Below, one piece after another: positions 30,411 through 36,430 of a stretch of DNA of 46,911 nucleotides. This stretch comes from Candidatus Omnitrophota bacterium (lineage in GTDB: Bacteria > Omnitrophota > Gorgyraeia > Zapsychrales > Fredricksoniimonadaceae): assembly GCA_002753745.1 (NCBI GenBank), contig PEAR01000003.1, positions 1-46,911 on the forward strand. Direction: 5' to 3'. The position numbers and the translations under genes were made by a program. Numbering within the stretch: position 1 is the stretch's first letter; every line of letters begins with the position of its first letter. The notes beneath the pieces are model-generated. The model was not told the origin of the DNA, searched no databases, and saw only the letters and a list, made by a program, of their open reading frames with translations.

Positions 30411-31178
30411 TTAATGGTGCACCTCTTCGTGTTTTAATACGAGTGAGAAATAAACCAGCGTCAGAATACTAAAAACAGCCGCCTGAATCGTAGACGTTAA
30501 AACCATTAAAATAAAATTAGGGAAAAGCCACAAAAAACCATCCTTAAGTCCCCAACTGGCAAATAACGCAAGAATAACGTCATCACCGTACACATTGCTG
30601 CGCAGACGAAGCGAAAGGCTGACAGGACGCACCAGTTCACTGACAACATGCAAGACCAGCATAAAAACAGGCATAATGATCGTCATGGCCATTACGCCGC
30701 GCGGTTGACCCATCAAATGATCTACATATCCGCGAAATCCAAGTTCCCTAAAACCTGTATATTGAATGTAAAAGAAGACGATCAGTGCCAACCCGACCGT
30801 TGTAGAAAGATCGGCTGTGGGTGATTTAAAGAACGGGATTAACCCGATATAATTCATGGCAAGGATATAAATAAAAAGAGTCCCGATAAAAGCTGTATAG
30901 TGCCTTCCTCTTGTCCCAAGGATGCTACAGACGAAATCGTCTATAAAAGAAACGAGCAATTCCGCCCCACTTTGAAAGCGGCCTGGCGAATACTCCATCT
31001 TTCTTGTGGCGAAGTAAGACGCAAGCGAAAGCAGGGTAATTACCAAAAGAGAATAAATCGCTGTCTCCCAACGTTGAAGGAAATGACCGAAAGCATTGCT
31101 GCTGTTTAATTCAGCAATGATCCCCACAATGTGAGGAAATTCTGCGGTAGTAGACTTTGCGGTTGTTTCTGCGATCAT
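30411..31178 (-). CDS. atpB: ATP synthase a subunit
   Basis: NYIGLIP, SPTAD, RPVSLSLRL, IQAAVF; first gene of the operon; no atpI seen. Confidence 0.95.
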   Translation of the reverse strand: MIAETTAKSTTAEFPHIVGIIAELNSSNAFGHFLQRWETAIYSLLVITLLSLASYFATRKMEYSPGRFQSGAELLVSFIDDFVCSILGTRGRHYTAFIGTLFIYILAMNYIGLIPFFKSPTADLSTTVGLALIVFFYIQYTGFRELGFRGYVDHLMGQPRGVMAMTIIMPVFMLVLHVVSELVRPVSLSLRLRSNVYGDDVILALFASWGLKDGFLWLFPNFILMVLTSTIQAAVFSILTLVYFSLVLKHEEVHH

Positions 31179-31297
31179 AAATGTGGTTTTTAAAGGCCGT
31201 TAAATTTTAATATGTTACCAAGTCGTGAATATAATTCAACATTTTTTAGTGATTTTGTAACAACTAATGCAAAAAGAGGATTTCAGCTACTGAAAGA

Positions 31298-31358
31298 TAA
31301 ACCGGAACACATCAGGTTAATGAGTTATTTTCTTCAAAACCCAATGTGTTCCGGTTTA
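31298..31358. repeat. 15-bp perfect inverted repeat / long hairpin downstream of glnK (possible terminator or processing element)
   Basis: TAAACCGGAACACAT (31298-31312) and ATGTGTTCCGGTTTA (31344-31358), with a 31-nt partly self-complementary spacer. Confidence 0.75.
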
Positions 31359-31381
31359 AAATCGTCTCTGATACAGGGACT

Positions 31382-31723
31382 TTAACCGATAGCAAGCCCC
31401 CCGCGCTCTTCGGTACGGATACGAATACATTGATCCAGCGGAAGAATAAAGATCTTACCGTCGCCTGTCTCTCCGGTCTTGGCTCCTTTGACAATGGCCT
31501 TTACCGCCGTCTCGACAAACGTATCGTTAACAGCAATATCGATACGTATCTTCCTTAAAAGGTTCCCCATCTCTTTCGCACCGCGATACACCTCTGTTAC
31601 ACCCTTTTGACGGCCATGGCCAAGGACTTCGCTTACTGTTATTAAATTTACATCAACTTTATACAATTCCTCTTTTACATCATCTAGCCTGCTGGGCTGA
31701 ATAATCGCCACAATCATTTTCAT
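31382..31723 (-). CDS. glnK: P-II nitrogen regulatory protein (amt-linked)
   Basis: GHGRQKG, YRG T-loop, TGDGKIF B-loop, RIRT C-loop; directly downstream of amtB. Confidence 0.93.
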   Translation of the reverse strand: MKMIVAIIQPSRLDDVKEELYKVDVNLITVSEVLGHGRQKGVTEVYRGAKEMGNLLRKIRIDIAVNDTFVETAVKAIVKGAKTGETGDGKIFILPLDQCIRIRTEERGGLAIG

Positions 31724-31770
31724 AATTTATTCTCCTTTTAATTTTGATCCAACATAAACATTCAGACAAT

Positions 31771-31807
31771 CTCCGTGCCAGCCGGTCCCGCCGGCTGGCA
31801 GACGGAG
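31771..31807. repeat. GC-rich intergenic hairpin between amtB and glnK
   Basis: TGCCAGCCGG-tcccg-CCGGCTGGCA core, extended by CTCCG(T)/(A)CGGAG. Confidence 0.75.
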
Positions 31808-31817
31808 TAGTTTGATT

Positions 31818-33044
31818 TTATTCTAACATAGTATAGGCGCGCTCATGATGCTGGGTGAGATCAAGACCGACATCTTCTTCCTTAGAAGATACTCTCATCC
31901 CAAGAACCAGATCAACAACTTTATACAGGATCGCTGTTACAACGGCTGAGTAAACAACCGTCACAGCAACAGCTTTAACCTGGATCATAAATTGAGCAGG
32001 GTTACCGTAAAAAACGCCATCTGCGCCGGCAGAGTTGACGAGTTTGGTAGCAAACAAGCCTGTCGCCAAAGCGCCCCATATACCACCGATACAATGAACA
32101 CCAAAAGCATCCAGCGCATCATCGTAACCAAGAGCGGGCTTAATGATAACGGCAGCCAAATAGCAGAACACACTAACCAGCAACCCGATCGCCAAAGCAC
32201 CGCTAACATTGACAAAGCCGGCGGCAGGTGTGATCGCAACCAAACCTGCAACAGCACCAGAAGCAATACCAAAAAGGGTTGGCTTTCCATTACGTACCCA
32301 TTCGATCACAGCCCAGCTTAAACCGGCAGCAGCAGCAGCTGTATTTGTCACCACAAAGGCATTTGCCGCCAAACCATTTGCCGCCAAAGCAGAACCGGCG
32401 TTAAAACCAAACCATCCGAACCATAACAAAGCAGTTCCTAAAGCCACGAAAGGTAGATTGTGTGGTGAAGGAATATGCTTATCAGCATTCTTTCTAGGCC
32501 CGATCATTAAAGCAGTAACTAAAGCAGCAATACCTGCGTTAATATGGACGACCGTCCCTCCCGCGAAATCCAAGGTTCCAAGATTACGAAGGAATCCACC
32601 CATACCCCACACCCAGTGTGCAATCGGGCAATATACAAGTGTCAGCCAAAGAATCATGAAGACAACAAATGAAGAAAACTTCATTCTTTCCGCAAACGCG
32701 CCAATGATCAACGCAGGAGTGATTACCGCGAACATGGCCTGAAAGATCATGAAAACCTGATGCGGGATCGTCGCAGAATAATCGTTATACGGCTCCAAAC
32801 CGACACCATTTAACATCGACCAGTTAAACCCGCCCCAAAAACCAGTTCCCGGCGCAAAAGCCAAACTGTAACCATAAACAACCCAAAGAACGCTCACGAG
32901 ACATAAAACAAAAAAGCACTGCATCAAGACGCTTAAGACATTCTTTCTTCTAACCATCCCTCCATAAAAGAAGGCCAACCCAGGCGTCATTAGCATAACA
33001 AGCGCCGTTGATACCAAAACCCATGATGTATCTCCTGCATTCAT
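31818..33044 (-). CDS. amtB: Ammonium transporter
   Basis: LMTPGLAFFYGG, DFAGGTVVHINAG, WFGWFGFNAGS, DDALDAFGVH; both twin-His residues present; RBS AAAGGAG. Confidence 0.98.
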   Translation of the reverse strand: MNAGDTSWVLVSTALVMLMTPGLAFFYGGMVRRKNVLSVLMQCFFVLCLVSVLWVVYGYSLAFAPGTGFWGGFNWSMLNGVGLEPYNDYSATIPHQVFMIFQAMFAVITPALIIGAFAERMKFSSFVVFMILWLTLVYCPIAHWVWGMGGFLRNLGTLDFAGGTVVHINAGIAALVTALMIGPRKNADKHIPSPHNLPFVALGTALLWFGWFGFNAGSALAANGLAANAFVVTNTAAAAAGLSWAVIEWVRNGKPTLFGIASGAVAGLVAITPAAGFVNVSGALAIGLLVSVFCYLAAVIIKPALGYDDALDAFGVHCIGGIWGALATGLFATKLVNSAGADGVFYGNPAQFMIQVKAVAVTVVYSAVVTAILYKVVDLVLGMRVSSKEEDVGLDLTQHHERAYTMLE

Positions 33045-33112
33045 AATTTTCTCCTTTGTTTTTTAATCCTGCCCTGTTCTTAAACTTAATCGCTTTTACT
33101 GCCAACTGCCGG

Positions 33113-33164
33113 AAAAAAGAAAAAAGCGCCTTTAATTCATCAGCGATGATGATTTAAAGACGCC
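33113..33164 (-). terminator. Intrinsic terminator (attenuator) in the amtB leader
   Basis: Minus strand GGCGUCUUUAAAUCAUCA-UCGC-UGAUGAAUUAAAGGCGCU followed by UUUUUCUUUUUU. Confidence 0.88.
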
Positions 33165-33204
33165 TTTGTCTTTTACTCCAATTTGTCTCAGGCTTCGTTG
33201 CCTG
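33156..33204 (-). promoter_or_regulatory. ANTAR-type dual-hexaloop RNA antitermination element
   Basis: P1 CAGGC-AACGAA-GCCUG (33204-33189), 15-nt linker, P2 AAAGAC-AAAGGC-GUCUUU (33173-33156). Both loops have A1 and G4 and a C-G closing pair; P2 overlaps the 5' arm of the terminator. Confidence 0.88.
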
Positions 33205-33271
33205 TTATTTGCTTGGGCCTTTTCGGCCCAATTCGCACCAATAGCTCTCAATGGTACGTTAGACATTTGTA

Positions 33272-33299
33272 AGTATAAAACCTTTTGGTAAAATTTCAA
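33272..33299 (-). promoter_or_regulatory. sigma70-like promoter for the amtB-glnK leader
   Basis: Minus strand TTGAAA, 16 nt, TATACT, upstream of the ANTAR hairpins. Confidence 0.55.
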
Positions 33300-33319
33300 G
33301 GGGTAATTTTAATTATTTT

Positions 33320-33347
33320 TTGCCTCGACGACAATTTTATGTATAAT
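33320..33347 (+). promoter_or_regulatory. sigma70-like promoter for the NSS transporter
   Basis: TTGCCT, 16 nt, TATAAT; ends 9 nt before ATG 33357. Confidence 0.55.
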
Positions 33348-33356
33348 GTTTTCATC

Positions 33357-34919
33357 ATGGCTCAAAAACAACGAGATTCCTGGGGATCACGTCTTGGCGT
33401 GATCATGGCCGTCGCCGGATCGGCGATCGGACTGGGAAATTTTCTTCGCTTTCCCGCCAAAGCCGCCGCAAATGGCGGCGGAGCGTTCATGATCCCCTAT
33501 CTAGTAGCCCTTATTCTTCTTGGTATTCCTTTAATGTGGATCGAATGGACCCTGGGGCGCTTTGGCGGTGGTTTCGGCCACGGCACAGCACCCGGTATTT
33601 TTCACTCAATCTGGAAAAAGAACCGTTTTATCCGCTACTTCGGTGTTATCGGCATTTTTGGTCCCATTGTCATCTTTTCTTATTACACTTTCATTGAATC
33701 GTGGACCCTGGGCTATAGCTTCTTTTCCATATCGGGAAAACTTCATACACTTTCGGACCAAAACGCCATGCAAAACTTTCTCCGTGGATACCAAGGCGTT
33801 GAACATAATATATTCTTCAATGACATTAAATGGGCATATGCTTTCTTCACTGTTACGTTCCTAGTAAATATTGCGGTCATCTATCACGGTATTAAAGGAG
33901 GGATTGAAAAACTCTGTAACATCGCCATGCCTCTGCTGTTTGTTTGCGGTGTCATTCTCATGCTACGCGTCATTACTCTCGGAACACCTGACCCGTCAAA
34001 ACCAGACTGGAATATCGCCAACGGGTTTGGGTACATGTGGAACGCTGATTTCTCAAAACTTTTATCCGCCAAAGTCTGGCTGGAAGCTGCCGGTCAAATA
34101 TTCTTTACCCTCAGCGTCGGAATTGGTGTAATTCTGACATATGCGAGTTATCTCAAAAAAGGCGATGATGTTGCCCTGTCCGGGTTGACAGCTGCCAGTA
34201 CCAATGAGTTAGCTGAAGTTATTCTCGGGGGCAGTATCATTATCCCGGCCGCTTTTATATTTTTTGGGCCAGCCCAGATCGAAACTATTGCCAAGTCCGG
34301 CACTTTTAATCTGGGTTTCATCACCATGCCTCTTATCCTTAACAAACTTCCCTGGGCTGAATTATTCGCTTTTGCCTGGTTTCTTTTACTTTTTCTGGCC
34401 GGGATCACTTCGTCTGTATCGCTGGCGCAGCCGGCGATCGCGTTCCTGGAAGATGAATTCGATATCAGCCGACGACGCGCCGTGGTCATTTTTGCGATCG
34501 TTACCTTTATTCTCTGCCAGCCGGCAATATTTTTTCTCAAGAATGGCGTTGTCGACGAGCTTGACTTTTGGGGTGGGACATTTTTCCTGGTACTCTTTGG
34601 TCTTATCGAAACCATTCTTTTCGGTTGGGTGCTGGGCATGAACAGCGCCTGGGAAGAAATCCACCACGGAGCGGACATGAACATCCCCAAAATATATAAG
34701 TTTATTATTAAATACGTAACCCCTACTTTTCTTATCTTTATTCTTGGAATGTGGCTTTTTCAGGAATGGCTGCCGGTTATTCTAATGTCCAGCGTCCCGT
34801 CTTCTGATAAACCCTATGTCCTGGCTACCCGTCTGGGGTTGATAGGATTTTTCATTATACTGGCCTTTTTGGTAAAGGTCGCCTGGCGGCGTAAAGAAGG
34901 AAAGAATTGGTTCTTATGA
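33357..34919 (+). CDS. Sodium-dependent transporter, NSS/SLC6 (LeuT-like) family
   Basis: RDSWGSRLG, AGSAIGLGNFLRFP, NGGGAFMIPY, QIFFTLSVG, AGITSSVS. Start placed at ATG 33357. Confidence 0.95.
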   Translation: MAQKQRDSWGSRLGVIMAVAGSAIGLGNFLRFPAKAAANGGGAFMIPYLVALILLGIPLMWIEWTLGRFGGGFGHGTAPGIFHSIWKKNRFIRYFGVIGIFGPIVIFSYYTFIESWTLGYSFFSISGKLHTLSDQNAMQNFLRGYQGVEHNIFFNDIKWAYAFFTVTFLVNIAVIYHGIKGGIEKLCNIAMPLLFVCGVILMLRVITLGTPDPSKPDWNIANGFGYMWNADFSKLLSAKVWLEAAGQIFFTLSVGIGVILTYASYLKKGDDVALSGLTAASTNELAEVILGGSIIIPAAFIFFGPAQIETIAKSGTFNLGFITMPLILNKLPWAELFAFAWFLLLFLAGITSSVSLAQPAIAFLEDEFDISRRRAVVIFAIVTFILCQPAIFFLKNGVVDELDFWGGTFFLVLFGLIETILFGWVLGMNSAWEEIHHGADMNIPKIYKFIIKYVTPTFLIFILGMWLFQEWLPVILMSSVPSSDKPYVLATRLGLIGFFIILAFLVKVAWRRKEGKNWFL

Positions 34920-35017
34920 ACATTAGCGGCTGGATAATGATATCTTTCACCTGGGGAGCGATCCTGCTTCTGACTGCTTTCTGCTTTTACAAAGTCCTGT
35001 CAAAAAAAGATCTATAG
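34916..35017 (+). CDS. 33-aa single-TM protein, probable MetS-like small subunit of the NSS transporter
   Basis: Below the ORF-track cutoff. MNISGWIMISFTWGAILLLTAFCFYKVLSKKDL*; its ATG overlaps the transporter stop (ATGA); one hydrophobic helix and a basic tail. Confidence 0.75.
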   Translation: MNISGWIMISFTWGAILLLTAFCFYKVLSKKDL

Positions 35018-36430
35018 TTCCGACGGCTCATGAAAACCATCAGCGACAGTCACGACAGGAAGAGGCTCCACCACCTTGATCTTTCTCCAGTTCCCGGTTT
35101 GATAACGGAAAAAAACGATAAACGAAAACACAAAAAAGAGACCCACCAACGCTGCCCATCCAGCGAGTGGAGACATATTTAACATTCGCAACATCACATA
35201 AAGAGCTCCAACAACGATCCAGTGCAGAGATACCGAGATCGCCATCGCCCAAAAAGTATCGCCCGCGCCCCTTAAAGCGCCAATAAAAACAACAAACAAT
35301 GCTTCAACCAAAACATAGATCGACGCCAAGCGAACCATCATGACGGCCAAAGGTGCGGCAGTGTCAAAAATCGCACCAGTTCCAGAGGGTTGAAAAATAC
35401 GCACCAGCATCTCGGGAAAGCATAAGAACAAAAATAATATAACTGAAGAATAAGCCAGTCCCAGTTTAAACCCGGACATGGTCGCCCGATGCGCCGTATC
35501 AGGATCCCCTGCCCCCATGTAGCGTCCCACCAGGCTGGTAACACCGATCTCAACCCCGATCAAAGGTACAAACGAGACCAGGTCCCAGTTTAACACGATT
35601 GTGGCCGCCGTTGCCGTTACCAGTCCATGAGCGTGAAAAATAAGAACTGTTGCATTAAAAGCCAGAATATTCAGAAATAATTCTACGCCTGATGGGGTGC
35701 CAAACCGCAATAGTTTGAACATTGCTTCACGATCGAATCGAAAAGACTTGGCTAAACCGAAATCAAGTGCATTTCTTCGATTCAGATAAGCCGCTATCAG
35801 GACCAGAAAACCACTAAAACCGCCGATCAGCGTTCCATAAGCTGCCCCCCGAATTCCCATCGGCGAGAGCCCTAACTTGCCGAAAATAAAAATATAGTTT
35901 AAAACCATATTGACCAGCATCGCCGTAAACGAAGCGATCATCACAATCCGGGTCCTTCCAATACCGGAAAAGAATGACCCCAGGCTGATGCGGAACAAAC
36001 TGATTACAGCTCCATATAATAAAATATCAAAATACAAATTCTGCGGCGCCATTTGCTCAGGAGCGACACCCATCAGCTGAAAAAGTCCATGGGCCAACGG
36101 ACGACATAATAAAATAGGGATATACGCAACGATCGAGATTATAAGAGCCTGGGTCAAAACCAAAGCGCATTTGTCTTTACGCCCGGCGCCCAAATATTGT
36201 GCAACGAGCGCCGAGGCATACCCGACGATCCCGACAAAAAGAGAAAACATCATAAAAGAAGTCAACCCTCCACCGAAAGCCGCATTCATTTGTTCGGGAC
36301 CTAATTTAGATAGAAATAACCGATCCGTAAAGATCATCACCGTATCACACGACTGGGAAATAACCATCGGGAGCGCGATAGCGATCATTTCACCAATACT
36401 GCCTTGTTGATGACGAAAAGGACTGCTCAT
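35012..36430 (-). CDS. MATE family efflux transporter
   Basis: About 12 TM helices; TDRLFLSKLG, AQYLGAG, GIRGAAYGT, GALRGAGDT. Confidence 0.93.
   Translation of the reverse strand: MSSPFRHQQGSIGEMIAIALPMVISQSCDTVMIFTDRLFLSKLGPEQMNAAFGGGLTSFMMFSLFVGIVGYASALVAQYLGAGRKDKCALVLTQALIISIVAYIPILLCRPLAHGLFQLMGVAPEQMAPQNLYFDILLYGAVISLFRISLGSFFSGIGRTRIVMIASFTAMLVNMVLNYIFIFGKLGLSPMGIRGAAYGTLIGGFSGFLVLIAAYLNRRNALDFGLAKSFRFDREAMFKLLRFGTPSGVELFLNILAFNATVLIFHAHGLVTATAATIVLNWDLVSFVPLIGVEIGVTSLVGRYMGAGDPDTAHRATMSGFKLGLAYSSVILFLFLCFPEMLVRIFQPSGTGAIFDTAAPLAVMMVRLASIYVLVEALFVVFIGALRGAGDTFWAMAISVSLHWIVVGALYVMLRMLNMSPLAGWAALVGLFFVFSFIVFFRYQTGNWRKIKVVEPLPVVTVADGFHEPSEL

Follow-up and report, generated by a model that had tools for sequence, protein, structure and literature searches.

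The gene pair amtB-glnK lies on the minus strand of a stretch of 46,911 nucleotides (nt), here called the window and covering positions 1 to 46,911 of contig PEAR01000003.1, which belongs to a Candidatus Omnitrophota bacterium (GenBank assembly GCA_002753745.1). This metagenome-assembled genome (MAG) has a size of 2.54 Mb in 240 contigs and is 86% complete. The subject of our analysis is the 5' leader of the gene pair, reading on the minus strand as a promoter, a first hexaloop hairpin (P1), a linker, a second hexaloop hairpin (P2) and an intrinsic terminator (Table 1). This arrangement, including the linker of 15 nt, had been described in an earlier note made from the letters alone, and it was recovered when each position was read again. 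The note had overlooked two further conserved hairpins, here called Ha and Hb, located upstream of P1 and downstream of the promoter. Antitermination via two hexaloops with A at position 1 and G at position 4 (A1/G4) is established for the ANTAR regulators EutV, NasR and AmiR, and both hexaloops of the window, AACGAA in P1 and AAAGGC in P2, are of this kind.

Table 1. Features of the amtB-glnK region, numbered from the first letter of the window (bp, base pairs; aa, amino acids; E, expect value)
Feature	Position	Strand	Description
Sigma-70-like promoter	33272..33299	-	-35 TTGAAA 33299-33294, 16-nt spacer, -10 TATACT 33277-33272
Ha, first leader hairpin	33234..33258	-	7 bp, 11-nt loop, -8.1 kcal/mol
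Hb, GC-rich hairpin	33213..33231	-	GGGCC[GAAAA]GGCCC, -12.5 kcal/mol
P1	33189..33204	-	CAGGC[AACGAA]GCCUG, 5 bp, hexaloop with A1 and G4, -7.0 kcal/mol
P1-P2 linker	33174..33188	-	15 nt
P2, antiterminator hairpin	33156..33173	-	AAAGAC[AAAGGC]GUCUUU, 6 bp, hexaloop with A1 and G4, -4.1 kcal/mol
Intrinsic terminator stem	33126..33163	-	-18.8 kcal/mol
U tract	33113..33125	-	UUUUUUCUUUUUU; T-rich in 13/13 aligned leaders
amtB	31818..33044	-	408 aa, ATG at 33044; Pfam Ammonium_transp, E 1.4e-132
glnK (PII)	31382..31723	-	113 aa; Pfam P-II, E 1.2e-26
Long hairpin 3' of glnK	31298..31356	-	weak T tract; read from sequence

Folding and conservation of the leader

The 5' arm of the terminator consists of bases 5-6 of the P2 loop and the entire 3' arm of P2, so that the two structures are mutually exclusive, as had been proposed. 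Given the folding energies of both (Table 1), P2 is not able to compete with the terminator unaided. Folded as a whole, the 171-nt leader adopted the terminator form with -69.8 kcal/mol (z = -7.15), and none of 200 shuffled sequences was as stable; according to this model, the unassisted leader RNA should terminate. The fold predicted for the state before termination, in which the 3' arm of the terminator is not yet made, includes both P1 and P2. In this genus, a UGUCU/AGACA helix is moreover predicted at that stage, which would join Ha, Hb and P1 in a three-way junction.

Covariation in orthologous leaders, named in the earlier note as a way to check the switch, was analysed in an alignment of 13 amtB leaders from several genera built with MAFFT, and P1, P2 and the terminator were found conserved with some compensatory changes. 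P1 was paired in 100% of the cells with an invariant closing C-G pair, P2 in 94.9% with two-sided changes in two pairs, and the ten basal pairs of the terminator in 97.7% with two-sided changes in four. The covariation score exceeded all 500 shuffles and every slid control. In both loops G4 was invariant (13/13). Position 5 of the P2 loop covaries with the 3' arm of the terminator, forming G-C in eight leaders and A-U in five, which directly supports the overlap of P2 and terminator. Ha displayed strong covariation, with two-sided changes in five of its seven pairs, and four core pairs of Hb were invariant in 13/13 leaders; only these core pairs were scored, since MAFFT offset the outer Hb pairs by one column between genera. 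The P1 loop has seven bases in two of the 13 leaders, and the linker measures 10 and 13 nt in two leaders of the same genus compared with 15 nt in the window.

The promoter reached 10 of 12 matches in a consensus scan and its -10 box is retained in the alignment; judging from these features, transcription appears to start here. The earlier note had also considered a start downstream of the terminator, and the scan revealed no promoter-like site between the terminator and amtB. A look-up of sequencing runs covering 31300-33400 returned none. The stretch of about 220 nt was regarded as a 5' leader and not as the end of another gene because the neighbour on its far side, an SNF-family transporter gene (Pfam), is divergent on the plus strand. 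The long hairpin 3' of glnK is, by its sequence, probably the operon terminator; the consensus terminator scan made no call at this hairpin.

The module and its proposed regulator in the genome and its relatives

A bare pair of A1/G4 hexaloops is not rare. In the whole 2.54-Mb genome we counted 59 occurrences on both strands (stems of at least 5 bp, linker of 1-30 nt), or about one per stretch of the size of the window; the significance of the pair in the window is due to its overlap with a terminator in a 5' leader, its recurrence at nitrogen genes and its conservation in relatives. Likewise, genome-wide scans for hexaloops overlapping a terminator returned 28 (loose) and 17 (strict) cases with A..G.. 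loops, which were not enriched among 16 similar classes, as the terminator calls were mostly weak sites inside genes. On inspection, three loci (contigs C11, C17 and C67), among them the leader in the window, proved to be genuine arrangements of promoter, leader and terminator with such hairpins, all of them preceding nitrogen-assimilation genes.

The leader of a second amtB-glnK pair (C17, 10860-11075, plus strand) displayed four A..G.. hexaloop hairpins with the loops AUUGAC, AAUGAU, AACGUG and AAUGAA, the AACGUG hairpin overlapping the terminator. The last hairpin, UUGGCAG[AAUGAA]CUGCCAA, lies past the terminator about 20 nt before the start codon and may provide a translational layer of control. 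On C67, glnN, a type III enzyme and the only glutamine synthetase gene found in the genome, has its own promoter and carries AGGGC[AUUGAC]GUCCU over its terminator as the sole canonical hairpin. Ha and Hb are missing from both of these leaders. A scan for the same motif at other nitrogen genes, as the earlier note had envisaged, was thus positive for glnN and the second amtB-glnK pair and negative for gltB, whose leader in this genome has no such hairpin; the glutamate dehydrogenase (GDH) family gave no match in the genome. Two further hairpin matches were rejected, one on C31 located inside an open reading frame (ORF) of 572 aa and one on C13 resembling the end-of-operon terminator of a response-regulator gene, and matches to bare consensus patterns were mostly coding. 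A palindromic repeat, gggcggcc-N6-ggccgccc followed by GTACATGCG-like bases, occurs on C103, C124, C126, C183, C219 and others; it looks like a repetitive extragenic palindromic element, and no copy lies in the amtB-glnK leader.

The regulator had been expected to be an ANTAR protein encoded in trans, none being present in the window. Indeed, PF03861 matched exactly one protein of the genome, located outside the window on C67 (E 3.0e-21; 72.9 bits compared with a Pfam gathering threshold of 27.3), and its gene adjoins glnN directly upstream. The protein has 413 aa and the architecture GAF-GAF-ANTAR, thus carrying two GAF sensor domains. Its ANTAR part (residues 344-406) matches the solved domains 6wsh_A, 1s8n_A and 4akk_A, the latter from NasR (E 5.1e-6). 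The best matches were the PtsP/EI-Ntr GAF domain for GAF1 (PDB 3ci6_A, E 3.5e-19; NCBIfam PRK11061, E 4.6e-36) and the NifA N-terminus for GAF2 (TIGR01817, E 2.2e-28). The GAF domain of NifA binds 2-oxoglutarate. For EI-Ntr, binding of glutamine by the GAF domain has been reported (PMC4848567). By analogy with these two domains, the ligand of the Omnitrophota protein may be glutamine and/or 2-oxoglutarate. Public copies of the protein bear generic names, namely "GAF domain-containing protein", "GAF and ANTAR domain-containing protein" or "signal transduction protein with GAF and PtsI domain".

Control by NtrC and sigma-54 had been discounted in the earlier note, in agreement with the sigma-70-like promoter and with our search for Sigma54_DBD, which was not found in the genome itself (86% complete) or in four genomes of the same genus (74-93% complete). 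Our set of relatives comprised 61 genomes of the same order, including the one studied here; amtB was found in 54, ANTAR in 57, nearly always as a single copy of about 410-440 aa, and Sigma54_DBD in 24. Most of the Omnitrophota genomes searched were therefore without detected sigma-54. When coordinates were compared, 24 of the 57 genomes had the ANTAR domain upstream of a same-strand amtB match, at a distance of no more than about 4.1 kb. In the own genus and neighbouring genera the ANTAR gene precedes glnN instead.

For the ANTAR protein 45 loci were collected, 44 of them with a usable match, and the next ORF was checked with Pfam at 20. It belonged to type III glutamine synthetase (one), the Amt family (three), NirB-type nitrite reductase (three, one of which is cut by a contig end and lacks NIR_SIR domains), NifH (one), GDH (one, locus L070 in a MAG labelled Spirochaetia), a PyrK-like oxidoreductase (one), Gcw_chp (two), families without an apparent connection to nitrogen (three) or no family (five). 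Hexaloop hairpins with A or G at position 1 and G at position 4 (R..G..) occurred at least once within 330 nt after the ANTAR gene in 10/10 nitrogen-related cases and in 0 of 6 Pfam-tested loci without a nitrogen family (L044, L049, L050, L051, L052 and L057). Ten more glnN-like and four more amtB-like ORFs following the ANTAR gene were recognised by their N-termini only.

In a pool of 28 regions upstream of amtB and 44 downstream of the ANTAR gene, 72 in total, the sense strand yielded 309 hexaloop hairpins, 125 with A..G.. and 46 with G..G.. loops, and the antisense strand 201, with only 8 and 9, respectively. Throughout the own genome, under slightly stricter stem rules, A..G.. loops account for 2000 of 32478 hexaloop hairpins. 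The hairpin consensus reads (A)GGGC-R-N-N-G-A-N-GYCC(U). Such a hairpin overlaps 61 of 96 leader terminators (49 with A1), a count in which the 96 calls include nested duplicates or the ANTAR gene's own terminator, compared with 38 of 2286 terminators genome-wide in the own genome. In five well-assembled relatives, searched with no guide from gene positions, the pattern GGGCANNGANGTCC gave 11 matches versus two for its backwards control. Three of the 11 lie inside ORFs and eight in promoter-proximal leaders, namely two at glnN, four in the amtB region (in two leaders), one at a Glu_synthase-family gene and one at a PyrK-like gene.

Some leaders of relatives hold additional ORFs. Between terminator and amtB, L005, L006 and L010 have a short ORF (about 16-35 codons) in which all three share a G-R-D-S-P stretch and which is not present in the window, and L027 and L030 have a hydrophobic ORF of about 35-40 codons between leader and amtB. 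In L017-L019, amtB directly follows a long porin-like ORF, and in L056 and L068 the ANTAR gene is followed by an ORF with a Pfam Gcw_chp match; the porin-like or Gcw_chp product may assist ammonium uptake as a partner in the outer membrane. Beyond the Omnitrophota, proteins homologous to the GAF-GAF-ANTAR regulator with about 50% identity were also seen in L070 and in L072 (Nitrospinota), and the GDH gene after the homologue in L070 is accompanied by two hairpins with AAAGGC hexaloops.

Competing readings of the switch

Taking folding, conservation and recurrence together, and in support of the interpretation given in the earlier note, we consider it likely, as far as can be judged from sequence, that a protein-dependent transcription attenuator of ANTAR type is present in the 5' leader of amtB-glnK. 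Transcription would start at the sigma-70-like promoter and, by default, the strong terminator would form and RNA polymerase would stop before amtB. Under nitrogen shortage, the single GAF-GAF-ANTAR protein would bind the nascent RNA at the P1 and P2 hexaloops and keep the weak P2 closed, whereby the 5' arm of the terminator would be withheld and polymerase would read through into amtB-glnK. The same protein, acting on the same module, would switch on glnN and the second amtB-glnK pair, so that a small nitrogen regulon would operate at the RNA level. Both the binding of the hairpins by the protein and read-through under nitrogen limitation as the direction of response are inferred.

Several observations weigh against this reading. 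The linker of the window, with 15 nt, falls outside the 5-12 nt of the Enterococcus faecalis eut leaders, in which linkers of 3 and 14 nt impaired induction; the published ANTAR RNA search model leaves the length of the linker variable (PMC3369931). In four leaders of other genera it reaches 29-34 nt where scored; judged by eye, the alignment shows an additional hairpin between P1 and P2 in these leaders and a still wider spacing in other genera. Position 1 of the loop, where A is a defining base in the work on EutV and NasR, is not fixed, being A in six, G in six and U in one of the 13 leaders for P1, and A in nine and G in four for P2. The A1/G4 loops claimed in the earlier note are therefore correct for the window and, as regards G4, for the relatives, but the lineage consensus is R1/G4 because position 1 varies and G4 does not. 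Covariation of P1 is thin, with one two-sided pair and two changes from G-C to G-U, and the shuffle controls overstate significance since they were run on related sequences. The conservation of Ha and Hb is not accounted for by the ANTAR model. Finally, a second R..G.. hairpin lies at most 40 nt upstream of only 27 of 61 P2-type hairpins, so that many leaders look single-hairpin.

The last point leads to an alternative that retains the regulator and its logic while reducing the essential unit to a single P2-type hexaloop over a terminator, the second site being the nearest available hexaloop, for example at the terminator tip, and P1 being auxiliary. The other 34 of the 61 P2-type hairpins fit this view, as does the glnN leader of the same genome with its one canonical hairpin. 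Many leaders are tandem arrays of one hairpin and one terminator each (e.g., L016, L021 and L053); in 10 of the 96 leader terminators the tip itself is an R..G.. hexaloop, and 32 are followed by another such hairpin within 45 nt. In the window, too, the terminator tip allows an A1/G4 hexaloop to be drawn, UCAUC[AUCGCU]GAUGA (33137-33152, minus strand), 3 nt past P2, and it is kept in two leaders of the same genus. However, this tip hexaloop is absent from the other genera of the 13-leader alignment, whereas P1 is paired in every leader with its G4 and closing C-G unchanged, and a spacing of 3 nt is the one that impaired EutV control (PMC3369931). We therefore regard the single-hairpin unit as unlikely for the window leader.

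Much less probable still is a sensor made of RNA only, in which Ha, Hb and P1 form the ligand-binding junction of a new riboswitch that resembles ANTAR targets merely by coincidence. Such a sensor would account for the conservation of Ha and Hb, for the two-sided changes in Ha and for the three-way junction of the pre-terminator fold, but the helix closing that junction is not evident beyond the genus in the 13 leaders. Moreover, the short hexaloop hairpin is the only element common to the leaders of different nitrogen genes, Ha and Hb being missing at glnN and the second amtB, and the motif travels with the ANTAR gene. Glutamine-sensing riboswitches are included in Rfam 15. Its covariance models, run over 30500-35500 on both strands with E up to 10, gave no relevant family; all eight matches were to microRNA (miRNA), small RNA, antisense-RNA or small nucleolar RNA families far below their gathering scores, and a miRNA-like match at the long hairpin 3' of glnK was judged spurious. 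The least credible alternative, a constitutive attenuator or a small-RNA gene yielding a stable RNA of about 150 nt, with amtB-glnK driven otherwise or merely dampened and no nitrogen signal involved, would suit the highly structured terminated product, but it is opposed by the lack of a promoter-like site between the terminator and amtB in the consensus scan, by the same module before unrelated nitrogen genes with otherwise different leaders and by the invariant G4.

The ANTAR-type attenuator of the window may be part of a wider scheme, which we put forward tentatively and with slightly less than even confidence: in the Omnitrophota, one GAF-GAF-ANTAR protein would serve as master nitrogen regulator, reading glutamine and/or 2-oxoglutarate directly via its EI-Ntr-like and NifA-like GAF domains and controlling the entire assimilation regulon (amtB-glnK, glnN, nirB, nifH and glutamate synthase-type genes) purely by antitermination. 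In this scheme the targets would be, in contrast to the textbook dual hairpin, single R1/G4 modules of hexaloop plus terminator, often two or three in tandem, with extra hexaloops at the tips of terminators and close upstream of the start codon.

Comparison with known ANTAR systems

An RNA-level nitrogen regulon, suggested in the earlier note to be undescribed in this lineage, is new here only as regards lineage and sensor, because ANTAR nitrogen regulons with ammonium transporters and PII have already been published for other phyla (PMC3369931, PMC2995071). What appears to be new from our sequences is the phylum, judged without the hit tables of Ramesh et al. 2012, the sensor of tandem GAF domains resembling those of nitrogen sensors, and a looser RNA grammar with frequent single-hairpin tandem terminators. 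Later ANTAR surveys, as far as represented in the source available to us, cover firmicutes, proteobacteria and actinobacteria (PMC8164766), and a whole-word search of the literature collection covered here found no paper naming both ANTAR and Omnitrophota. As the Omnitrophota are uncultivated, their regulation can be deduced from sequence only, and the present model gives a concrete and testable description of how nitrogen sensing may be linked to the activation of ammonium uptake and glutamine synthesis in this phylum. In addition, it provides a compact natural one-component ANTAR regulator with sensor domains like known glutamine and 2-oxoglutarate sensors, and tandem single-hairpin terminators would widen the definition of an ANTAR target in genome scans.

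The EutV/EutW-eut system of E. faecalis is alike in having two A1/G4 hexaloop hairpins, the second of which shares bases with an intrinsic terminator (PMC3369931). EutV stabilises the eut antiterminator (PMC3369931), and we propose the same role for the GAF-GAF-ANTAR protein. Differences concern the regulator, EutV being a phosphorylated response regulator, the target, which is ethanolamine use for eut and ammonium uptake here (PMC3369931), and the leader, in which loop position 1 is A or G across orthologues and P1 is preceded by two additional conserved hairpins.

NasR/nasF of Klebsiella and AmiR/amiE of Pseudomonas are likewise one-component or partner-controlled ANTAR antiterminators of nitrogen-source genes. 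NasR senses via a NIT domain, however, and AmiR via its partner AmiC, and their signals are nitrate or amides rather than general nitrogen status. The requirement for A1 and G4 was first shown for nasF (cited in PMC3369931). With respect to the sensor, the GAF domains of PtsP/EI-Ntr and NifA are coupled to a kinase of the phosphotransferase system or to a sigma-54 activator as output, whereas here the output would be an RNA-binding ANTAR domain, ligand binding being presumed by analogy. In the text of Ramesh et al. 2012 available to us, no GAF-ANTAR protein had been characterised by that time (PMC3369931), and in the accessible part of a 2025 ANTAR review GAF appears solely as a type of domain architecture.

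In Geobacter sulfurreducens, GnfR of the GnfK/GnfR pair relieves termination at nifH, the sole gene tested experimentally according to the portion of the report available (Ueki and Lovley 2010; PMC2995071). As a response regulator, GnfR depends on a kinase for its activation and is itself controlled by sigma-54/GnfM (PMC2995071), while in our genome the sensor is built in and no sigma-54 was found in the five genomes of the genus. Terminator-like leaders with the site CAGGCAANGGCGCC were also described before glnK and amtB of Geobacter (PMC2995071), and this site is strikingly close to P1 of the window (CAGGCAACGAAGCC) and to the P2 loop AAAGGC. Finally, Ramesh et al. 2012 listed covariance-model matches before genes for PII, ammonium transporters, nitrite reductase, nitrogenase and glutamine/glutamate synthases in a diverse range of bacteria (PMC3369931). 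The ANTAR nitrogen regulons of the Desulfotomaculum acetoxidans type predicted in that work comprise the same gene set as that of the Omnitrophota, in a different phylum (PMC3369931).

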